The translations under genes and the position numbers were made by a program. From a virus, in the IMG/VR virus record IMGVR_UViG_3300045988_001437, positions 1 to 5,728 of that record: a stretch of DNA of 5,728 nt; one strand, given 5' to 3'. This document shows positions 1 to 5,728 of the stretch, in pieces. Position 1 is the first letter of the stretch. Every line of letters starts with the position of its first letter. A model generated the notes under the pieces. The model made no database searches. It was not told the origin of the DNA and worked only from the letters and a program-made list of their open reading frames with translations.

Positions 1-30
1 CTTCGGTTTAACGGTCTTGCGGTATGCCAT
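1..30 (-). CDS. Partial duplicate copy of the N-terminus of the 39-aa basic peptide gene (first 10 codons, MAYRKTVKPK). It is the same gene as 5564..5683, seen again because of the circular overlap.
   Basis: The reverse complement of 1-30 reads ATGGCATACCGCAAGACCGTTAAACCGAAG. The RBS AAGGAGGTG lies at 36-44 on the minus strand. Confidence 0.5.
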   Translation of the reverse strand, partial: MAYRKTVKPK

Positions 31-52
31 GATACCACCTCCTTTTTCTCTC

Positions 53-61
53 ATTTTACCA
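53..61 (-). promoter_or_regulatory. Candidate promoter P3, an extended -10 element TGgTAAAAT. The T14 tract lies immediately upstream. It would drive the J-like, RHH71, 92-aa, VP3, VP1 and VP2 operon. A duplicate copy lies at 5706-5714.
   Basis: The minus strand reads ccTTGCG-T14-GG-TAAAAT-gagagaaaaAGGAGGTGgtatcATG. The TG dinucleotide is at the correct position for an extended -10. The -35 is poor (TTGCGT). Confidence 0.3.
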
Positions 62-74
62 AAAAAAAAAAAAA
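61..74. repeat. A14/T14 homopolymer tract. Duplicate copy at 5714-5727.
   Basis: Direct count of 14 consecutive A on the plus strand. Confidence 0.9.
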
Positions 75-102
75 CGCAAGGCTGATTTTCGTCAACCTCA
101 CG
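61..102 (-). terminator. Weak hairpin (7-bp stem with two G-U pairs and a 14-nt loop, at 75-102) followed by a U14 tract (61-74). A possible terminator for the acidic-ORF transcript.
   Basis: The minus-strand RNA reads CGUGAGG-N14-CCUUGCG followed by U14. The long loop makes this uncertain, but the U-run is very strong. Confidence 0.3.
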
Positions 103-117
103 TTTTTAATTTTATTA

Positions 118-282
118 TTATCGGTTTTCGTATTCTTTCAGTTTTTCACAGATTGCGTCTGTCCATTCATCGTCCATGTCGTATTCTTCTTGTATTTCGT
201 CTCTGTCTGTGCTTCTCCATCCGCCATCGTAAAGAGCTGCTGCACAATCTTCAATATTTTCTTCGTAGAAATTGTATTTCAT
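118..282 (-). CDS. 54-aa highly acidic small protein, MKYNFYEENIEDCAAALYDGGWRSTDRDEIQEEYDMDDEWTDAICEKLKEYENR. Function unknown. It forms an autonomous expression cassette.
   Basis: Hand-translated. ATG at 280-282 on the minus strand with the SD GAAAGGAGAA 8 nt upstream. It carries 18 Asp or Glu against 6 Lys or Arg. Its own consensus promoter lies upstream at 323-351, and a hairpin plus T14 lies downstream. Confidence 0.6.
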   Translation of the reverse strand: MKYNFYEENIEDCAAALYDGGWRSTDRDEIQEEYDMDDEWTDAICEKLKEYENR

Positions 283-312
283 GGTTTATTCTCCTTTCAG
301 ATTTAATCCTTT

Positions 313-345
313 CTACACCTTTATTATACACCTTTTATATACACT
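313..345 (-). repeat. Three tandem copies of a 13-bp unit GTGTATAWWAAAG, each carrying a GGTGTA or GTGTA core, overlapping the -10 and spacer of P1. An operator-like array.
   Basis: Plus-strand tacacc at 314-319 and 327-332, and tacac at 340-344, on an exact 13-bp register. Confidence 0.55.
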
Positions 346-351
346 TGTCAA
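323..351 (-). promoter_or_regulatory. Promoter P1, a consensus sigma70 promoter. On the minus strand it reads TTGACA, then 17 nt, then TATAAT.
   Basis: The reverse complement of 321-352 is cTTGACAagtgtatataaaaggtgTATAATaa. The -35 element lies at 346-351 and the -10 element at 323-328, both on the minus strand. It drives the acidic ORF, whose start lies about 40 nt downstream. Confidence 0.6.
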
Positions 352-406
352 GCACTTTTTTGCCTTTGCTAGGAAGCGCTATCAGACTCCCGCCCGCAGG
401 CGCTCC

Positions 407-437
407 AAATGATAAGAGACCGGCTTTCGCCGGTCTC
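407..437 (-). terminator. Intrinsic terminator candidate downstream of Rep. It is a 9-bp perfect stem GAGACCGGC / GCCGGUCUC with a GAAA tetraloop, followed by UUAUCAUUU.
   Basis: Plus-strand arms lie at 416-424 and 429-437 with the loop at 425-428. On the minus-strand RNA the loop is GAAA, a GNRA loop, and the U-rich tract corresponds to 407-415. The element lies about 64 nt after the Rep stop. Confidence 0.5.
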
Positions 438-500
438 AGACTATTGGCGCGCTTCCGTTAGACTTTGTGTCAGCTGCCACACTACTTTATTTAGCAAATT

Positions 501-1616
501 TTATACTTCTTCTCTTATGAGTTTTTTGAATTTTTCTTGATTTTTCTTGTCTTTTAGGTCATAATATTCTTGCATGTTCAAGCCGGTCTGTCTCAACTGA
601 GCAAACAGTGCATCATTTGCGATTCTTCGCCGTTCGCGTTTGATGGCTTTCAGTTCTTCAGATTCGGCTTTTACTATTGTGTCTTCTATCGTCTCGCTTT
701 CTGCTTCAGATAATGGTTTGCTGTTTGAGTGTTCCAGATCAAACAGTTTATCAAAATATCGTGGTGGTTTTGTTCTCCTTCCGTTTTTCAGCTGGATTTC
801 ATCTTTTGCATAGATTTCATCTTTGTGTTCCTCATAGTATTGCATTCCGATTGCAGGATTTTTGCTCATCATGCAGCGTTCTGGTAATACTCCGAGCTCT
901 TCATAATATTTTTTGGAGTCCTTGCCATAAATTTTTTTTGTCGTATATCTGGCAGTGTATGCCATGTTTTTCCATTCTGCTGGTCCTACTACTACATGAC
1001 CCATACCCCACAGTTTTGTGAGCCACTCGACATTGTAGTATCTGAATCCGTTTTTCTGCTTGTAGATTTTCAGTTCTTCCGGTTTTATTGGCAGATCGTA
1101 CACGATCGCATGATAATGCGGTCTGTGTGTCTGACTTCCGTATTCTCCTGCTTGGTAGTACATCAGTTTTCCGGTATTTCTTTCATGGTATTCTAACCAG
1201 CGTCTTAGGCGTTTCCAGAATTTCTGCATGTCCTCATAGTTTAACGTTAAGTTCTCTATGATTATTTCGCCGGTTCTTTTGTTAACTCCCAAACCTTGAT
1301 TGTAAGACCACGGTACGTGGTCCTCATCGTATGTAAGCGTTAAAAACCACGCATTATCGTGATATGGCAGTTCCATTTCCATTCTGTTTGCCCAGCTGCT
1401 TGCATTTTGCATCTTACAGCCGGCACAGTGACCGCATGGTAGCAGCTGAGCGTTTTCGTCTTTCAGCTTTCTCAATAGCTTTTTTTCTAGGCTTTCGTTC
1501 CAAAACGGTCCCTCAAAGTTCTGTTGGTTGTTGTGCTTCTTTCCTGCCAGTAGGTATTTTTTCAGGCTTGTTATTTCGCCGTCTGCGAACCTTACTAATG
1601 GCTGTGTGCACCCCAT
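501..1616 (-). CDS. VP4: Replication initiation protein VP4 (371 aa), an HUH rolling-circle endonuclease of the phiX174 gpA superfamily.
   Basis: Motif 1 is FLTLTYD. Motif 2 is RPHYHAIVYD, the HUH motif. Motif 3 is MAYTARYTTKKIYGK, a YxxRYxxK motif carrying the catalytic Tyr pair. The N-terminal region contains the Cys cluster CGHCAGC. Confidence 0.93.
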   Translation of the reverse strand: MGCTQPLVRFADGEITSLKKYLLAGKKHNNQQNFEGPFWNESLEKKLLRKLKDENAQLLPCGHCAGCKMQNASSWANRMEMELPYHDNAWFLTLTYDEDHVPWSYNQGLGVNKRTGEIIIENLTLNYEDMQKFWKRLRRWLEYHERNTGKLMYYQAGEYGSQTHRPHYHAIVYDLPIKPEELKIYKQKNGFRYYNVEWLTKLWGMGHVVVGPAEWKNMAYTARYTTKKIYGKDSKKYYEELGVLPERCMMSKNPAIGMQYYEEHKDEIYAKDEIQLKNGRRTKPPRYFDKLFDLEHSNSKPLSEAESETIEDTIVKAESEELKAIKRERRRIANDALFAQLRQTGLNMQEYYDLKDKKNQEKFKKLIREEV

Positions 1617-1639
1617 ATGGATGTTTCACCCCGTTCACC

Positions 1640-1685
1640 TCAGTGGGCCCCAATAACTCTTCTTGATGTTATTGGGGCCCACTGA
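1640..1685. other. Perfect 18-bp inverted repeat TCAGTGGGCCCCAATAAC / GTTATTGGGGCCCACTGA with a 10-nt loop, lying between the RHH54 stop and the Rep start.
   Basis: The arms at 1640-1657 and 1668-1685 are exact reverse complements and GC-rich at the stem base. On the minus strand the hairpin ends 23 nt upstream of the Rep ATG, next to GGTGAA-N3-GGTGAA direct repeats (plus-strand copies at 1625-1630 and 1634-1639). Confidence 0.75.
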
Positions 1686-1729
1686 CACAAAATTTCTCGT
1701 TTCCTTCGTTTTCCTCATGGATTTTTGTT

Positions 1730-1894
1730 TCAATCGTTGAACCCTAAGAGTTGAGCATACATGTCGATTGCGTCCCTGATTATGTCGCTGTCGATGTATT
1801 TTTCCCCTGTTTTTCTGCTTTCTATGTATCTCAGTTCGTCCAGCTGTTTCTGTGTGAGGTTAACGTTTACTCTTTTTGCTACTTGACTTTTCAT
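1730..1894 (-). CDS. 54-aa CopG-like ribbon-helix-helix protein, MKSQVAKRVNVNLTQKQLDELRYIESRKTGEKYIDSDIIRDAIDMYAQLLGFND.
   Basis: Hand-translated because it is below the ORF-track cutoff. ATG at 1892-1894 on the minus strand with the SD AAAAAGGAGT 7 nt upstream. The segment KRVNVNLTQKQLDELRYIESRKTGEKYIDSDIIRDAIDMY aligns residue for residue in pattern with CopG KRLTITLSESVLENLEKMAREMGLSKSAMISVALENY. Confidence 0.6.
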   Translation of the reverse strand: MKSQVAKRVNVNLTQKQLDELRYIESRKTGEKYIDSDIIRDAIDMYAQLLGFND

Positions 1895-1929
1895 GATTAT
1901 ACTCCTTTTTAGGTAAGGCGTTCGATTCG

Positions 1930-1948
1930 TACACCCATAATATACACC
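1930..1948 (-). repeat. Two GGTGTA direct repeats 13 bp apart, flanking and overlapping the P2 -10 element. They are homologous to the P1 array.
   Basis: Plus-strand tacacc at 1930-1935 and 1943-1948. Confidence 0.5.
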
Positions 1949-1967
1949 TTCTTTCTGTGTTTGTCAA
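1939..1967 (-). promoter_or_regulatory. Promoter P2. On the minus strand it reads TTGACA, then 17 nt, then TATATT, immediately after the VP2 stop. It drives the RHH54 and Rep operon.
   Basis: The reverse complement of 1937-1968 is gTTGACAaacacagaaagaaggtgTATATTat. The -35 element lies at 1962-1967 and the -10 element at 1939-1944. It shares AAGGTGTATAWT-N3-GGTGTA with P1. Confidence 0.55.
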
Positions 1968-2900
1968 CTATCTATTGTTTCTTGCTGTGTGTCCGGGATT
2001 CCATTCGATATCCCCGTGTGCTTCTCCGCTGATTCCCCGTTCGTTTCCTCGTGTCGTGCTCTGGCTCTGCTGGCTGCTCTGCTGGCTCAGGTTGCTGATC
2101 TGCTGTGCACTGCTTGACATGATCTGACTTGTGGCCTGCTGCATTTGCTCTGCGCTGTACCATTCGTTCGACTGTTTGGCGCTGTTGATCGCGGCCATGG
2201 CGTTCTGTAAAAACTGACTTGTATTGTTGCCGTAGTCGTACATGCTTTGCATGGTTGCCGTGTGTGCGCTTGGGATGGCTGCGCTCTGAGTGTGTGCAAA
2301 GCTCTGCATTCCGCTGCTTGCTGTGCCGCCTGAAGGTGTGCTTGCTCCGAACCCGTTGTATGCTGCTAACACCGGGTTTAAACCTGCTGCTTTCAGGTCT
2401 TTCACGCCGCGCTGGTATGCCGTGGAACTCATTCTTTCAGCCCATGCTCGCTGTGCTGCAGCTTCTGCGCTGTTGTACTTCTGTGCGCTTGTCTGGCTTG
2501 CGAGGTTCAGGCCGTTTGCTACGAGATTGCTGAGCATGTTCAGGCCGTTTGCATAGCTCCACATGCCTGTCTGCAGATTGTTTGCTGTGGTTGCCTGTCC
2601 TGCGTTGAATCCTGCTGCTGCTTCTGCGTTGTTTCCGGTAGGACTTCCCAGCGCTGTCTGTAGGATTCCGCCCAGTGAGCTTGTGTTGCCTGTCGTTACG
2701 CTTCCACCGCCTGCGGTTGTTGTTCCGCTCATGGTTCCGCTCTGGCTTCCGCTGCTCATGCTTGTGTTCATGCCCTGCTGTCCCATGGCGCTGCTCGTGC
2801 TTCCGCTTGTGTTGCTGAACAGGTTCTTTGCTTGTCCTGCGATCGACAGACCCGTTGAAACGATCGGCAGCCATGTCGCTAATCCTGATAAGAGGCCCAT
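1968..2900 (-). CDS. VP2: Minor capsid or DNA pilot protein VP2 (310 aa). It has a Gly/Ser/Thr/Ala-rich low-complexity half.
   Basis: ORF track entry. The conserved pilot-protein motif [18 protein letters not shown] is present. The RBS AAGGAGGT lies 6 nt upstream of the ATG and overlaps the VP1 stop. The gene sits immediately after VP1. Confidence 0.85.
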
Positions 2901-2911
2901 ATTGTACCTCC

Positions 2912-4525
2912 TTAGATTGTATCGATGCCTGGGATGCTATAGATAGGCATCGGTCTTGTCCATGCCTGACTGTAATAGAAGTTACAGATAAACTGGTGAG
3001 AGTTCGAGCTCTGTACCGCGAGAGTTCTGTCGATGTTTTCTGTTCCTTCTTTGATCCAGCTGCTGGACAGGGTAGGAAGTGCGTCGTATTTGTCCGCATA
3101 GTGCCATGCATCCAGCGTCTGCGCGTAGGTGCTGCGCATTTCGGACGTTACCATGTTTGTGCGGTACCTGTAGTCGGCCCAGGCTTCCTGATAGCCGAAT
3201 ACCTCTTCATCCTTTGCCTGTCCCTGTGCATAAATCTCCTGATTGAGCACTGCTTGTTCACCGAGGTTTGCTAACATTGGGTCATAGTAGGAAAAGCGAG
3301 TGCTGCGCGTCCAAAGTCTGCTCAGACCCTGCTGATAGCTGTGATCTACTCGGATAGCTGCCAGACCGAGGACAAAACCATGCTCGGTCGCGCTGTATGT
3401 GCACATATTCCGGCTTAATGTTGTCATGGAATAAGCACCGGTGTTGCCCTGCGGACTCGTGCTGTCCGTGCTGGATGTCTGAATTACCTGATTGACGTTG
3501 ATCGGCATTCTGTGCCCGCCGATGTACTCAGACCGGTCAAGACGTGCATCCGGACTTGTCACACCCCAAGCGCCTTTCAGGATTTCTTTGTATCGCGTGC
3601 CGGTTCTTGCATCACGTTCGAAGATGTGCTGCACTGCGATTGCCTGCCGCAAGTCGTTGATTGTCGCAGTTGTTGCGCTTCCGAGGTCTGCCATCAAATA
3701 GCCGCTTGTTGCTACTGCAGTTGTTGAGGCCGTTGTTGCTTTGACTGACTCTTCAATTTTTCCGTTCGGCTGGTTGTAGTAGAAGTTTTGCATTGCTCTG
3801 CTTTCGCTTCCGCTGTTCAGCATGTTTCCATCTATGTCACATACTCCTATTTTTGCATTTCCCAGCATTGGGATCGTTACTGGCTCTGTCGATTTCTGCA
3901 GAGACGGCAGGCAGCTGGTGAAATAGTCCTTGTACTTACAGACCTTCAGCGGCAGTCCGCCCGCTTCTGCGTCCGTCAGGTTCGTTCCCGTGTTTACGCC
4001 GGTCGTGGTCGTGTCGTCCATGCTTTGGGTTACAGGTTGCTGCAGGTTTTCGTCTCTGAACCATTCGTTATATACCTTGCAGTACGCTCTGAAAGGCAGA
4101 CTGTTCACCTTCAGGCCGCTCACGCCTGTCGGGATTCCGAAGTAATCCGCCAGAGTCCCAACGTTCCAGCCGCCTTCTGGTGCGGTCGTTACCGGAGTTG
4201 TGTATTCGGTCGGTTCTGCCCAGAAAGTGCTGTCGTTCTGGCCCATGAGGTTTTGAAAGTGCTTCCAGAGCAGTCTGCTCGGAATGAAGAAAAAGTAGAA
4301 GTCCATGTATGCATTGTCCATCACCGGATACAGCGGTGTGGCCATGCGAACCAGTGCGTTCAGGTTGATCTTGAAGGTATCTGCAGGCAATACCTCGTCC
4401 AAATAGATCGGTACAAGGTCGCCTTCGTTCATGGTCGTCAGCAGATTGAAATCTCGCTGGAATTTCGCTCTTCGGATTTCCGCATGAGGTACCTGTGCAT
4501 AGTGCTGCTCACTGTTTCTGTTCAT
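2912..4525 (-). CDS. VP1: Major capsid protein VP1 (537 aa), Microviridae F-protein family of the gokushovirus type.
   Basis: The N-terminus YAQVP...[13 protein letters not shown]...[17 protein letters not shown]...[12 protein letters not shown]...[12 protein letters not shown] matches the conserved gokushovirus VP1 signature FAQVP..R..F..TTF..G.L.PI..DEVLPGDTF..ARMATP..P.MDN..FFVP.RL.W. The SD GAGGT lies 9 nt upstream of the ATG. Confidence 0.95.
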
Positions 4526-5009
4526 CTGCTTTTACCTCTTTTTTTGTTGATTCTGCTGCAGCCTGGCTTTGTGCTGCAGCATTGTTTTTCGTTGAAATGC
4601 CCATTTTTTCGAGCCATTCGGCTTCTCCTGCGGTCGCTGCCCAGTTCTGGAAGTTCATGCCGAACTTCTGTCTGATCTCCAGCGGCAGCTGGTCGAACTT
4701 CTCGCGCTGCTCGTTCATGAGGTTCAGGTATTCGGTGTATGTCTTCGGCAGTTTCGTGGTGTCGATGTAGTAGCCCGGCGTTGTCAGTGCCGTTTCATCT
4801 CCTGCAGCGTATCGGCTGAGTATTGCCATCACATCGCACTGGTCGCGATAGCTCTGGATTTTCTCGTAGGTGTTGACCTCTCCGACTTTTTCAAGGTACG
4901 GATGCCCGTTAGCATCGTACCTTTCTTTGTATTCCGGCTCCATGATGTTCCCGCAGCAGTTGCAGCGGACTTCCGGTTTTTCTTTTTCGTATGGTTTAAA
5001 GATCTTCAT
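4509..5009 (-). CDS. VP3: Internal scaffolding protein VP3 (166 aa), gokushovirus-like.
   Basis: ORF track entry. Segments such as YRDQCDVMAILSRY and FDQLPLEIRQKFGMNF resemble Chlamydia-phage VP3 as I recall it (DECDINVLMKKY and ELPSNLRKKF). The gene sits immediately upstream of VP1 and overlaps its start by 17 nt. The C-terminal tail is acidic and low in complexity. Confidence 0.7.
   Translation of the reverse strand: MKIFKPYEKEKPEVRCNCCGNIMEPEYKERYDANGHPYLEKVGEVNTYEKIQSYRDQCDVMAILSRYAAGDETALTTPGYYIDTTKLPKTYTEYLNLMNEQREKFDQLPLEIRQKFGMNFQNWAATAGEAEWLEKMGISTKNNAAAQSQAAAESTKKEVKADEQKQ
4993..5006. repeat. 14-bp direct repeat GGTTTAAAGATCTT, copy 1. On the minus strand it is AAGATCTTTAAACC, which forms codons 2 to 6 of VP3.
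   Basis: Identical to 5057-5070. It is composed of the overlapping palindromes TTTAAA and AAGATCTT. Confidence 0.7.
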
Positions 5010-5056
5010 TTTCTCTTTTTCACCTTTTTTCTCTCGTTGTATCGTTCTTTTTTTAG

Positions 5057-5070
5057 GGTTTAAAGATCTT
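5057..5070. repeat. 14-bp direct repeat GGTTTAAAGATCTT, copy 2. It lies immediately 3' of the 92-aa ORF stop codon on the minus strand.
   Basis: Identical to 4993-5006. The two copies are 64 bp apart. Confidence 0.7.
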
Positions 5071-5348
5071 TATGCTTTTTTCCCTCGTGTCGGTTTCTTT
5101 ATCGGCTGCTGCATGGCTTTCTTTTCCTGTTCGATGTTGTAGATCAGTTCCGGCACCTGCGTTGTGATTTCGCCGGTTTCGGTGTTGTACATGCCCAGCT
5201 TGTAAATTCGCTTGTCATCACAGTCTTGCTTTTCGGTTTCTTCGGTCAGCCAGTGGAAAGTGCGCTGCGTGACTTTCGGATTGATCACCATGATGTTGCC
5301 GAAGGTACCGGCCAGTTCGTCTTTGATTGCGTACATTTCGAGAATCAT
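5070..5348 (-). CDS. 92-aa hypothetical protein with a basic C-terminal tail (KKPTRGKKA). It may be a VP5-like nonstructural protein.
   Basis: ORF track entry. ATG at 5346-5348 preceded by GGAAAGGAATAAACA. It lies in the slot between the regulatory genes and the scaffold gene. I recognise no family from the sequence alone. Confidence 0.55.
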   Translation of the reverse strand: MILEMYAIKDELAGTFGNIMVINPKVTQRTFHWLTEETEKQDCDDKRIYKLGMYNTETGEITTQVPELIYNIEQEKKAMQQPIKKPTRGKKA

Positions 5349-5351
5349 TGT

Positions 5352-5567
5352 TTATTCCTTTCCCAGTTCGTAGATCTGTTTTGTGGTGATGTTATCGAGT
5401 CCGTAGCGCAGCAGCGCTCTTGTCACTTTCGATCTCGGGATTTCCAGTGCCTGGCCGATGTCTTCGATTTCGTCCAGCATTCCGATTTCTATTCCGATCG
5501 CAAATCGGGTTTTCAGTTTTTTCGGATCCTTCTGGTTGAATCGTTCTCTGATGTGGCCGCTGCTCAT
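5352..5567 (-). CDS. 71-aa ribbon-helix-helix (CopG/Arc/MetJ-like) DNA-binding protein with a basic N-terminal tail.
   Basis: ORF track entry. The sequence TRFAIGIEIGMLDEIEDIGQALEIPRSKVTRALLRYGL fits a beta-strand, helix A, a P-R-S-K turn and helix B. Compare the CopG segment GLSKSAMISVALENY. The SD is GAGGGGG. The start overlaps the upstream gene stop as ATGA, which suggests translational coupling. Confidence 0.55.
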   Translation of the reverse strand: MSSGHIRERFNQKDPKKLKTRFAIGIEIGMLDEIEDIGQALEIPRSKVTRALLRYGLDNITTKQIYELGKE

Positions 5568-5683
5568 AGTCTGATTCCCCCTCTGCTCGGTTTCGGATTG
5601 ACGTTGATCTTTTTGGTTTTCTTTGCGGTGTTGGTGAAGATTTTCTTGTCGATCTTCGGTTTAACGGTCTTGCGGTATGCCAT
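5564..5683 (-). CDS. Small, highly basic 39-aa protein, MAYRKTVKPKIDKKIFTNTAKKTKKINVNPKPSRGGIRL. It resembles the Microviridae J or gokushovirus ORF8 DNA-binding and packaging peptide.
   Basis: ATG at 5681-5683 on the minus strand, preceded by a strong SD AAGGAGGTG with 6-nt spacing. 40 codons, 11 Lys and 3 Arg. The stop TGA overlaps the ATG of the next gene as ATGA. It is below the length cutoff of the supplied ORF track and I translated it by hand. Confidence 0.6.
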   Translation of the reverse strand: MAYRKTVKPKIDKKIFTNTAKKTKKINVNPKPSRGGIRL

Positions 5684-5728
5684 GATACCACCTCCTTTTT
5701 CTCTCATTTTACCAAAAAAAAAAAAAAC
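5654..5728. repeat. Second copy of the 75-nt terminal redundancy, matching 1-75.
   Basis: Exact identity to window positions 1-75. Confidence 0.9.

Follow-up and report, generated by a model that had tools for sequence, protein, structure and literature searches.

A covarying hairpin upstream of Rep as a probable viral-strand replication origin of gokushoviruses, lying opposite the genes in a gut clade

Introduction

What does a long and perfect hairpin do directly in front of the gene for the rolling-circle initiator (Rep) of a small single-stranded DNA (ssDNA) phage? The question is raised by IMG/VR virus record IMGVR_UViG_3300045988_001437, of which we analysed positions 1 to 5,728 (5,728 nucleotides, nt; hereafter the window, with the strand as recorded taken as the plus strand). 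Bases 1–75 recur exactly as bases 5654–5728, and given this 75-nt terminal redundancy the window represents a circular genome of 5,653 nt. It is that of a gokushovirus-like member of the Microviridae; among public records the closest to it are microviruses of the pig and human gut, 'Human gut gokushovirus' KX513873 among them, and every gene recognisable from the list of open reading frames (ORFs), Pfam and PHROG lies on the minus strand.

An initial annotation, made from the letters of the window alone, had drawn attention to the hairpin and to a pair of GGTGAA direct repeats beside it. It regarded the hairpin as a cis-acting element tied to Rep and to replication, and offered several roles for it: a complementary-strand (minus) origin or a recognition site for primase or RNA polymerase, a target of antisense RNA like that between copG and rep of rolling-circle plasmids, or a gate on the translation of Rep; nicking by Rep was named among its checks. 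The tie to Rep and replication is supported by the present analysis, which leads to a role other than these. Judging from sequence comparison, we consider it likely that the hairpin is the origin at which Rep nicks the DNA to begin viral-strand (rolling-circle) synthesis, and in the window the element lies on the strand opposite all of the genes.

Results and discussion

The hairpin upstream of Rep

The arms of the hairpin are complementary at 18 of 18 positions and enclose a 10-nt loop that reads TCTTCTTGAT on the plus strand and ATCAAGAAGA on the minus strand; on the plus strand the whole element runs TCAGTGGGCCCCAATAAC-TCTTCTTGAT-GTTATTGGGGCCCACTGA-CACAAAATTT. Positions 1640–1685 are the sole perfect long inverted repeat in the window, and by our own arithmetic a perfect inverted repeat of 18 base pairs (bp) with a loop of at most 20 nt is expected about 1e-6 times per 5.7 kb. 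Folding of the region, a check suggested with the initial annotation, returned one dominant hairpin, whether as RNA or as DNA and for either strand (z-scores from −5.2 down to −6.1), and none of 200 shuffled sequences folded as well. Arm match, chance expectation and fold z-scores bear out the original view that so long an exact repeat is improbable by chance. The distance to Rep is also as first described: on the minus strand the hairpin ends at 1640, 23 nt before the start codon of Rep (ATG, 1616–1614), and it stands beside a putative Shine-Dalgarno sequence, GGGGTGA, in the Rep leader (Table 1).

The GGTGAA direct repeats fared less well. Both copies exist in the leader, but they are not conserved: the distal copy is GGTAAA or GGCGAA in relatives with a 91–95% identical Rep, and in more distant relatives the repeat is gone, with only GAAAC and a purine-rich, Shine-Dalgarno-like stretch retained. 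The proximal copy shares bases with the Shine-Dalgarno sequence. Since they are not conserved in relatives, the repeats were rejected as iterons.

Conservation and covariation

Comparison with relatives had been set beforehand as the test of the element, and in that comparison the hairpin is kept, with compensatory changes in its arms. A collection-wide scan for the pattern TTGTGTCA-N11-19-TCAAGARG was too permissive, the matches listed being mostly chance occurrences on large contigs, and relatives were retrieved in its place by a Rep-anchored search of IMG/VR, which gave 53 loci whose Rep is 51–95% identical to that of the window. Nearly all of the loci that contain the upstream region carry a hairpin of 12–19 bp that ends 20–32 nt before the Rep ATG, with arm variants such as GGGCCCCAATAAC, GGGGGGAATAGAC, CTGGGGGGAAATGT and CCTAGCCCCAATAAC. 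In the alignment of the window clade (45 rows), compensatory double changes occur at 14 of the 19 stem pairs and 96.2% of cells are paired; the covariation score was reached by none of 500 shuffles, and pairing falls to 31–51% in slid controls. The loop core TCAAGA of the coding strand (TCTTGA on the plus strand) is invariant across the same 45 rows, as are seven of the eight bases of the coding-strand flank TTGTGTCA (TGACACAA on the plus strand), the remaining base being at least 90% conserved. At the family level, in an alignment of 50 rows, all 12 inner stem pairs covary, with a covariation score of 0.49 as against 0.17 for shuffles and 0.08–0.11 for slid controls, and CTTG is invariant.

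Among 1,592 stem pairs there are 7 internal mismatches and a single G·T, and this near-absence of G·T pairs favours a DNA cruciform or hairpin over an operator in mRNA. An attempt to pick the folding strand from the asymmetry of wobble pairs (G·T versus A·C) was uninformative with just seven mismatches to draw upon. At one locus (L029, positions 1–76) the hairpin just 5' of Rep is replaced by a G-rich low-complexity run, GGGGGGGGGGGGGGCGCGGGGGGCGG..., at the contig end, which is probably an artefact of sequencing or assembly.

A family-wide module with fixed spacing

The analysis was widened with about 130 further microvirus contigs oriented by Rep, in which identity to the window Rep reaches down to about 30%, and a strict module was defined by three requirements: a hairpin no shorter than 9 bp, a loop containing CTTG[AT], and GAC[AG] placed at the 3' base. 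This module occurs in 143 of the 164 Rep-oriented microvirus contigs, as compared with 0–17 for decoy motif pairs, and for 112 of these 143 no hairpin in the genome is longer. Of 103 distinct modules, 49 have a distance of 21 nt and 53 one of 22 nt between the C of CTTG and the G of GAC, a spacing that is held although the stem may be 9 to 20 bp and the loop 4 to 18 nt long. In the window, TGACAC starts 21 nt after the C of CTTG, with the G of GAC at +22; CTTGW-N16/17-GACR matches one window site only, on the plus strand, and the coding strand is without any CTTGAT. CTTG[AT] served as the search anchor for 120 distinct modules and GAC[AG] was likewise imposed; with these anchors, the base after CTTG is A in 106 of the 120 and the next base T in 108, while the imposed GAC is preceded by T in every one, followed by A in 119 and then by C in 113.

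A hairpin with a CTTGAT or CTTGTT loop is found in Chp2 and SpV4 too, as a full module match or, in Chp2, with a variant flank. The longest hairpin of Chp2 lies at 2904–2941, between VP3 and ORF8 (CTAGCGTATAACAG-TCTACTTGAT-CTGTTATACGCTAG), and the SpV4 hairpin reads TGGGGCATAT-ATTACTTGTTATA-ATATGCCCCA. Two further observations were made among the contigs. The clade L185-L202 has a second conserved short hairpin, TGTGGAAAAC-TTGA-GTTTTCAACA, about 230 nt upstream of the origin hairpin, and an IMG/VR contig (L303, at 5038–5167) ends in a 62-bp perfect palindrome that consists of Illumina Nextera adapter sequence (CTGTCTCTTATACACATCT...) and is an assembly artefact.

The strand that carries CTTG is the coding strand in phiX174, Chp2, SpV4 and 63 sampled contigs (hereafter sense). 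For 80 of the 143 contigs it is the non-coding strand that bears the whole module (hereafter anti), a set made up of the window, its entire clade, two more large clades and one separate small lineage; GenBank records MG945569 and KX513873 have the anti arrangement too. A flip of the loop alone, by recombination between the arms, was rejected as the source of this arrangement, the TGACAC flank being inverted along with the loop. The place of the module relative to Rep varies as well: among anti contigs it lies within 150 nt upstream of Rep in 47 and within 150 nt downstream of the Rep stop in 28, and in sense contigs it is often 150–600 nt upstream of Rep, or elsewhere.

The hairpin as a probable viral-strand origin

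The hairpin with its covariation, the invariance of loop and flank, the 21–22-nt spacing and the orientation relative to the genes are direct observations, and it is the match to phiX174 that gives them a probable meaning. In phiX174 record J02482, CTTGAT stands at 4302–4307, and the annotation puts the origin of viral-strand synthesis at position 4306, which is the A after CTTG in CAACTTGATATTAATAACACTATAGACCAC. With the nick core in the loop and a conserved flank at the phiX174 spacing, we therefore read the hairpin as a plus (viral-strand) origin nicked by Rep, and hold this to be likely. The window Rep has the HUH motif RPHYHAI and the two-tyrosine (Y-x3-Y) motif YTARYTTKK, and residues H167, H169, Y220 and Y224 are invariant in Rep alignment A2; the phiX174 gpA counterparts of the motifs are HFHAV and YVAKYVNKK, and the HUH region of gpA aligns with the window Rep by BLASTP.

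Were the hairpin such an origin, the perfect inverted repeat would extrude or melt on the supercoiled replicative form, and Rep (VP4, a two-tyrosine HUH enzyme) would dock on TGACAC at the base of the right arm. It would then cut the single-stranded loop at CTTG/AT (the slash marking cleavage), for which the predicted site is between G1665 and A1666 of the plus strand, and would become covalently joined to the 5' end. The 3'-OH would be extended by host polymerase, and after one round, with the regenerated site cut, the displaced strand would be circularised by ligation and packaged.

Neither a gokushovirus origin nor negative-sense microviruses were found in the searchable literature, the older papers on SpV4, Chp1/2 and phiMH2K being outside its coverage, and a family-wide definition of the gokushovirus origin as a hairpin with the loop CTTG/AT and TGACAC 21–22 nt downstream would be the first. 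It would give the gokushoviruses a compact origin element that is linked to the classical phiX174 origin, offering a principled zero coordinate and strand for the annotation of thousands of metagenomic microvirus genomes, and a minimal origin for gokushovirus replicons or phagemids.

Inverted orientation and strand asymmetry

In phiX174 the strand that is nicked is the strand that is displaced, circularised and packaged. With the module on the strand opposite the genes, the strand to be nicked, displaced and packaged would therefore be the antisense one, with replication and transcription meeting head-on. We lean towards the view that the window's clade does package the antisense strand and so comprises negative-sense Microviridae.

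This reading of the orientation has independent support that is suggestive, though imperfect. The coding strand of the window is 35.7% A and 16.6% T, with A at about 40% and T at 10–13% of four-fold degenerate sites, and relatives L001–L053 are alike. The AT skew of the coding strand is +0.25 to +0.42 in all 80 anti contigs and negative in 50 of the 63 sense contigs, and mean composition at four-fold sites of this strand forms a mirror image (T 0.50 and A 0.16 in sense; A 0.42 and T 0.12 in anti). Substitution patterns were examined from polarised singletons in ten clades, four sense and six anti. The rate ratio of C>T to G>A on the coding strand is 1.4–3.3 in the four sense clades and 0.63–1.2 in the six anti clades, and the asymmetry between T>C and A>G reverses with orientation in every clade tested. 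On the coding strand, and in anti clades only, C>A outweighs G>T by a factor of 4 to 15 (e.g. 65:10, 77:19 and 74:12; clade references WIN, L030, L019, L187, L220 and L228), which corresponds to an excess of G>T on the CTTG strand, and this excess may be a trace of oxidative damage to the DNA while single-stranded.

In a neighbour-joining tree of Rep, the anti contigs form one large clade and a second lineage (L195, L210 and L271), whose sister L282 is sense and T-rich. Both anti lineages have a positive skew beside sense relatives with a negative skew, and parsimony on this tree gives three changes of orientation with sense ancestral. The switch to anti would have arisen at least twice. A search of bacterial genomes for prophages gave no close relative of the clade, the best match being 36% identical and in a metagenome-assembled genome (MAG) of the Clostridia. 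At this locus (L320, positions 3728–3767 of CALWTI010000003.1, a 48.8-kb contig of an uncultured Clostridia MAG) an anti module lies upstream of a Rep 36% identical to that of the window, with the CTTG-strand loop ..TTACTTGATTA.. and the flank TGACACAAAA. The locus could represent a prophage and gives a hint that the anti-class lineages have a host among the Clostridia.

The inverted orientation challenges the textbook picture of the Microviridae as positive-sense. If true, antisense packaging would make a large and common group of gut gokushoviruses negative-sense, with synonymous-site composition reversed by the switch, and would account for the extreme A-richness of the coding strand in many gut microviruses. 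It would also bear on strand-aware quantification in ssDNA viromics, and it would provide a natural experiment in which single-strandedness and head-on replication and transcription can be set against mutation spectra.

Alternative explanations

Several points weigh against a Rep-nicked viral-strand origin, or against the packaging polarity drawn from it. Cleavage, the strand cut and the polarity of virion DNA are all derived from homology to phiX174, and the older literature is the source both for the division of the phiX174 origin into recognition sequence, spacer and key binding sequence and for the presence of the coding strand in Chp2 and SpV4 virions. In the window clade the hairpin is held 20–32 nt from the Rep ATG, inside the predicted Rep mRNA, and it may have a secondary, RNA-level effect on Rep expression. 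The substitution test was made on genomes about 13% diverged, with ratios near 1 in two of the anti clades, and the Rep tree behind the repeated switch is a crude neighbour-joining one. Composition has exceptions that contradict a simple rule of a T-rich CTTG strand: 13 of the 63 contigs with a strict sense module are A-rich on the coding strand (including L301, L285/L287/L289, L305 and L296/L311), with A at 52–60% of four-fold sites in L301, L285 and L305 despite the sense module, and phiMH2K (L173), a loose module match only, has a likewise A-rich coding strand. In view of these exceptions composition alone is no proof of polarity, and AT skew was rejected as a stand-alone indicator of the packaged strand and kept in a supporting use only.

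The main surviving rival is a minus origin, at which the hairpin in the packaged strand would recruit primase, RNA polymerase or a PriA-type primosome. Intergenic hairpins are established in this role in ssDNA phages (phiX174, G4 and M13), and covariation around an invariant loop would suit recognition by a host factor; the Rep-adjacent hairpins of tiny microviruses have also tentatively been read in this way (PMC9865509). The invariant loop, however, is the Rep nick core CTTG/AT, with its invariant flank at the 21–22-nt spacing of the phiX174 plus origin, and a host-factor site is not expected to be so uniform across phages of very different environments and hosts. No likeness to known primosome or primase sites was seen, in a comparison that used no diagnostic sequence model. 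We thus regard this role, as put forward in the initial annotation, as unlikely, and a minus origin would still need the plus strand to be packaged, so the polarity argued for above would stay. More improbable is an element acting in the mRNA of the Rep leader, be it a translational gate, an RNase III or stability element, or an antisense-RNA target like that between copG and rep. It is true that the hairpin folds strongly as RNA and is inside the predicted Rep transcript, between a small ribbon-helix-helix (RHH)-like ORF and Rep, where it abuts the Shine-Dalgarno sequence 23 nt from the ATG and is subject to the 20–32-nt constraint of the window clade. Yet the module comes after the Rep stop in 28 anti contigs or stands hundreds of nt off, and transcripts of sense lineages would bear the complementary loop; because it moves around Rep and sits on either strand, an mRNA operator, an RNase site or an antisense-RNA target is implausible. 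Moreover, G·U pairs are avoided, and the stem leaves the Shine-Dalgarno sequence free and the ATG uncovered. A consensus scan gave no promoter-like site on the plus strand in 1600–1730, and a scan with Rfam 15 gave nothing at 1600–1735, the two weak matches elsewhere in the window being far below gathering score. The earlier proposals of a gate on Rep translation and of an antisense-RNA target accordingly lack support, the stem sparing the Shine-Dalgarno sequence and the module elsewhere not being tied to the start of Rep.

The remaining two explanations have smaller chances still. A site of recombination or integration (Xer/dif-like, or a folded-ssDNA attP of the CTX type) or a packaging signal might be considered, given that some gokushoviruses are integrated prophages, that an anti-class module is found in the 48.8-kb Clostridia MAG contig, and that the element is an imperfect-spacer palindrome. 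We judge this very improbable, as the arms covary freely and do not match a host dif, their 13–18 bp and the spacer of 4–18 nt are unlike the 11-6-11 layout of dif, and the conserved parts are an asymmetric loop and one flank, as in a Rep origin. An intrinsic terminator or attenuator between the small ORF and Rep, for which the GC-rich 18-bp stem and its intercistronic place might speak, is hardly credible. A T/U tract follows the stem on neither strand and the terminator scan did not call it, in agreement with the initial annotation, which had thought a simple terminator improbable; clear terminators are found at 437–416 and 107–70, and an invariant loop is not a property of terminators.

Genome organization around the hairpin

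The features of the window are collected in Table 1. The predicted Rep transcript runs from a promoter-like site (1967–1939) through the small ORF (1894–1730), the hairpin and Rep to a terminator-like site (437–416).

Table 1. Features of the window, with the strand on which each is placed.
Feature	Position	Strand	Basis or remarks
Proposed origin hairpin	1640..1685	+ (proposed functional, nicked strand)	Arms 1640-1657 / 1668-1685, loop 1658-1667
CTTGAT, putative Rep recognition/nick core	1662..1667	+	Invariant CTTG; phiX174 origin match
Conserved 3' flank TGACACAAAATTT, proposed Rep 'key binding' sequence	1683..1695	+	Base of right arm and just beyond
Rep leader	1617..1639	-	Shine-Dalgarno-like GGGGTGA 1632-1626; GGTGAA at 1639-1634 and 1630-1625
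Rep/VP4, HUH rolling-circle initiator	501..1616	-	PF23343, E = 4e-16; PHROG 942 (replication initiation protein), E = 2e-98
54-amino-acid (54-aa) ORF, 5' of the hairpin, first gene of the Rep transcription unit	1730..1894	-	ORF list
Sigma-70-like promoter TTGACA-17-TATATT	1939..1967	-	11/12 consensus match alone; would transcribe small ORF, hairpin and Rep
Terminator-like hairpin GAGACCGGC GAAA GCCGGTCTC with T-rich tail	416..437	-	Terminator scan; 3' of Rep stop
Pilot protein VP2	1968-2900	-	
Major capsid protein	2912-4525	-	Phage_F, E = 1e-163
Scaffold VP3, Chlamydia-phage-type	4509-5009	-	
ORF5	5070-5348	-	
Several small ORFs		-	

The 54-aa ORF has no Pfam and no PHROG match. By eye we infer an RHH-like protein resembling CopG (KRVNVNLT followed by helices, KRVNVNLTQKQLDELRYIE...), which could repress the Rep promoter. 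That promoter is part of an element of about 38 nt that is repeated at 314–351 and 1930–1967, each copy with a near-consensus sigma-70 promoter-like site on the minus strand. The site at 351–323 reads TTGACA-17-TATAAT, a 12/12 consensus match, and each copy sits upstream of a 54-aa ORF of its own, a duplication that suggests two similarly regulated transcription units, one of them the Rep unit.

The terminator-like hairpin 3' of Rep is enclosed by a larger fold at 361–470, with outer pairing of GGAAGCGC and GCGCTTCC and a z-score of −3.1 as RNA and −4.1 as plus-strand DNA; this structured region is probably the Rep terminator. A second terminator-like site, at 107–70 on the minus strand, consists of an A14 run adjoining a 16-bp imperfect hairpin (region 61–107).

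Comparison with known systems

The nearest published description found concerns very small Microviridae, the 'reekeekee-' and 'roodoodooviruses', which have Rep-adjacent intergenic hairpins with compensatory substitutions and an identical loop (PMC9865509). Their function was left open, the authors leaning to a minus-strand role, and a nick motif, a fixed spacing and an analysis of orientation were not reported; our comparison with the window hairpin is by the description given there and not by sequence. For the reversal of composition with orientation, a parallel is offered by mitochondrial genomes, in which inversion of the control region is reported to reverse strand skew at four-fold degenerate sites (e.g. 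PMC4182315). The likeness to the anti microviruses is one of analogy only, as replication mode and genome type differ.

The placing of a nick site in the loop of a hairpin next to rep is shared with the origins of CRESS-DNA viruses, whose ssDNA is circular and encodes a Rep (circo-, gemini- and nanoviruses), and of plasmids of the pT181/pMV158 type. In the stem-loops of CRESS-DNA viruses and rolling-circle plasmids, conservation is of structure in the stem and of sequence in the loop, and the same holds for the window. The loop sequences differ, however: the window has CTTGAT, which is neither the CRESS nonanucleotide NANTATTAC, absent from both strands, nor any of the plasmid motifs. The window element has no conserved counterpart of the CRESS iterons, the GGTGAA repeats not being conserved, and consensus scans found neither the counter-transcript promoter nor the target at the rep start that mark the pMV158-type CopG/antisense control region. 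The Rep of the window, too, is unlike the initiators of these systems, being of the phiX174-like two-tyrosine class and without the S3H helicase domain. The double-strand origins of the pC194/pUB110 family do have the nick core CTTGATA, as in phiX174 and the window element, but are plasmid-borne and have a different Rep family and different flanks.

There remains phiX174 itself, whose gpA and the window Rep are homologous two-tyrosine HUH Reps. Its 30-nt gpA origin, CAACTTG/ATATTAATAACACTATAGACCAC, has the nick core CTTG/AT in common with the window element, and GACCAC follows 21 nt after the core, as compared with the window-type GAC(C)AC sequence at 21–22 nt on the same strand. In phiX174 the recognition sequence CAACTTGATA is followed by a spacer and then by the key sequence ..GACCAC; in the window the corresponding spacer is paired with a left arm and so forms the hairpin. 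Both spacers contain an A/T stretch (..TTAATAAC.. in phiX174, ..GTTATT.. in the window). The phiX174 origin, by contrast, lies within gene A on the coding (virion) strand and has neither a left arm nor a hairpin, whereas the window element is intergenic, with the nick core in the loop and the right arm of the 18-bp hairpin as the spacer, and is on the non-coding strand; a phiX174-type origin belongs to the mRNA-sense strand, and here the module is on the plus strand and the genes are on the minus strand. On the likeness of core, spacing, flank and initiator, the module is best read as homologous to the phiX174 origin. If the family-wide definition given above holds, the hairpin-less origin of phiX174 would be a derived half of the gokushovirus element.

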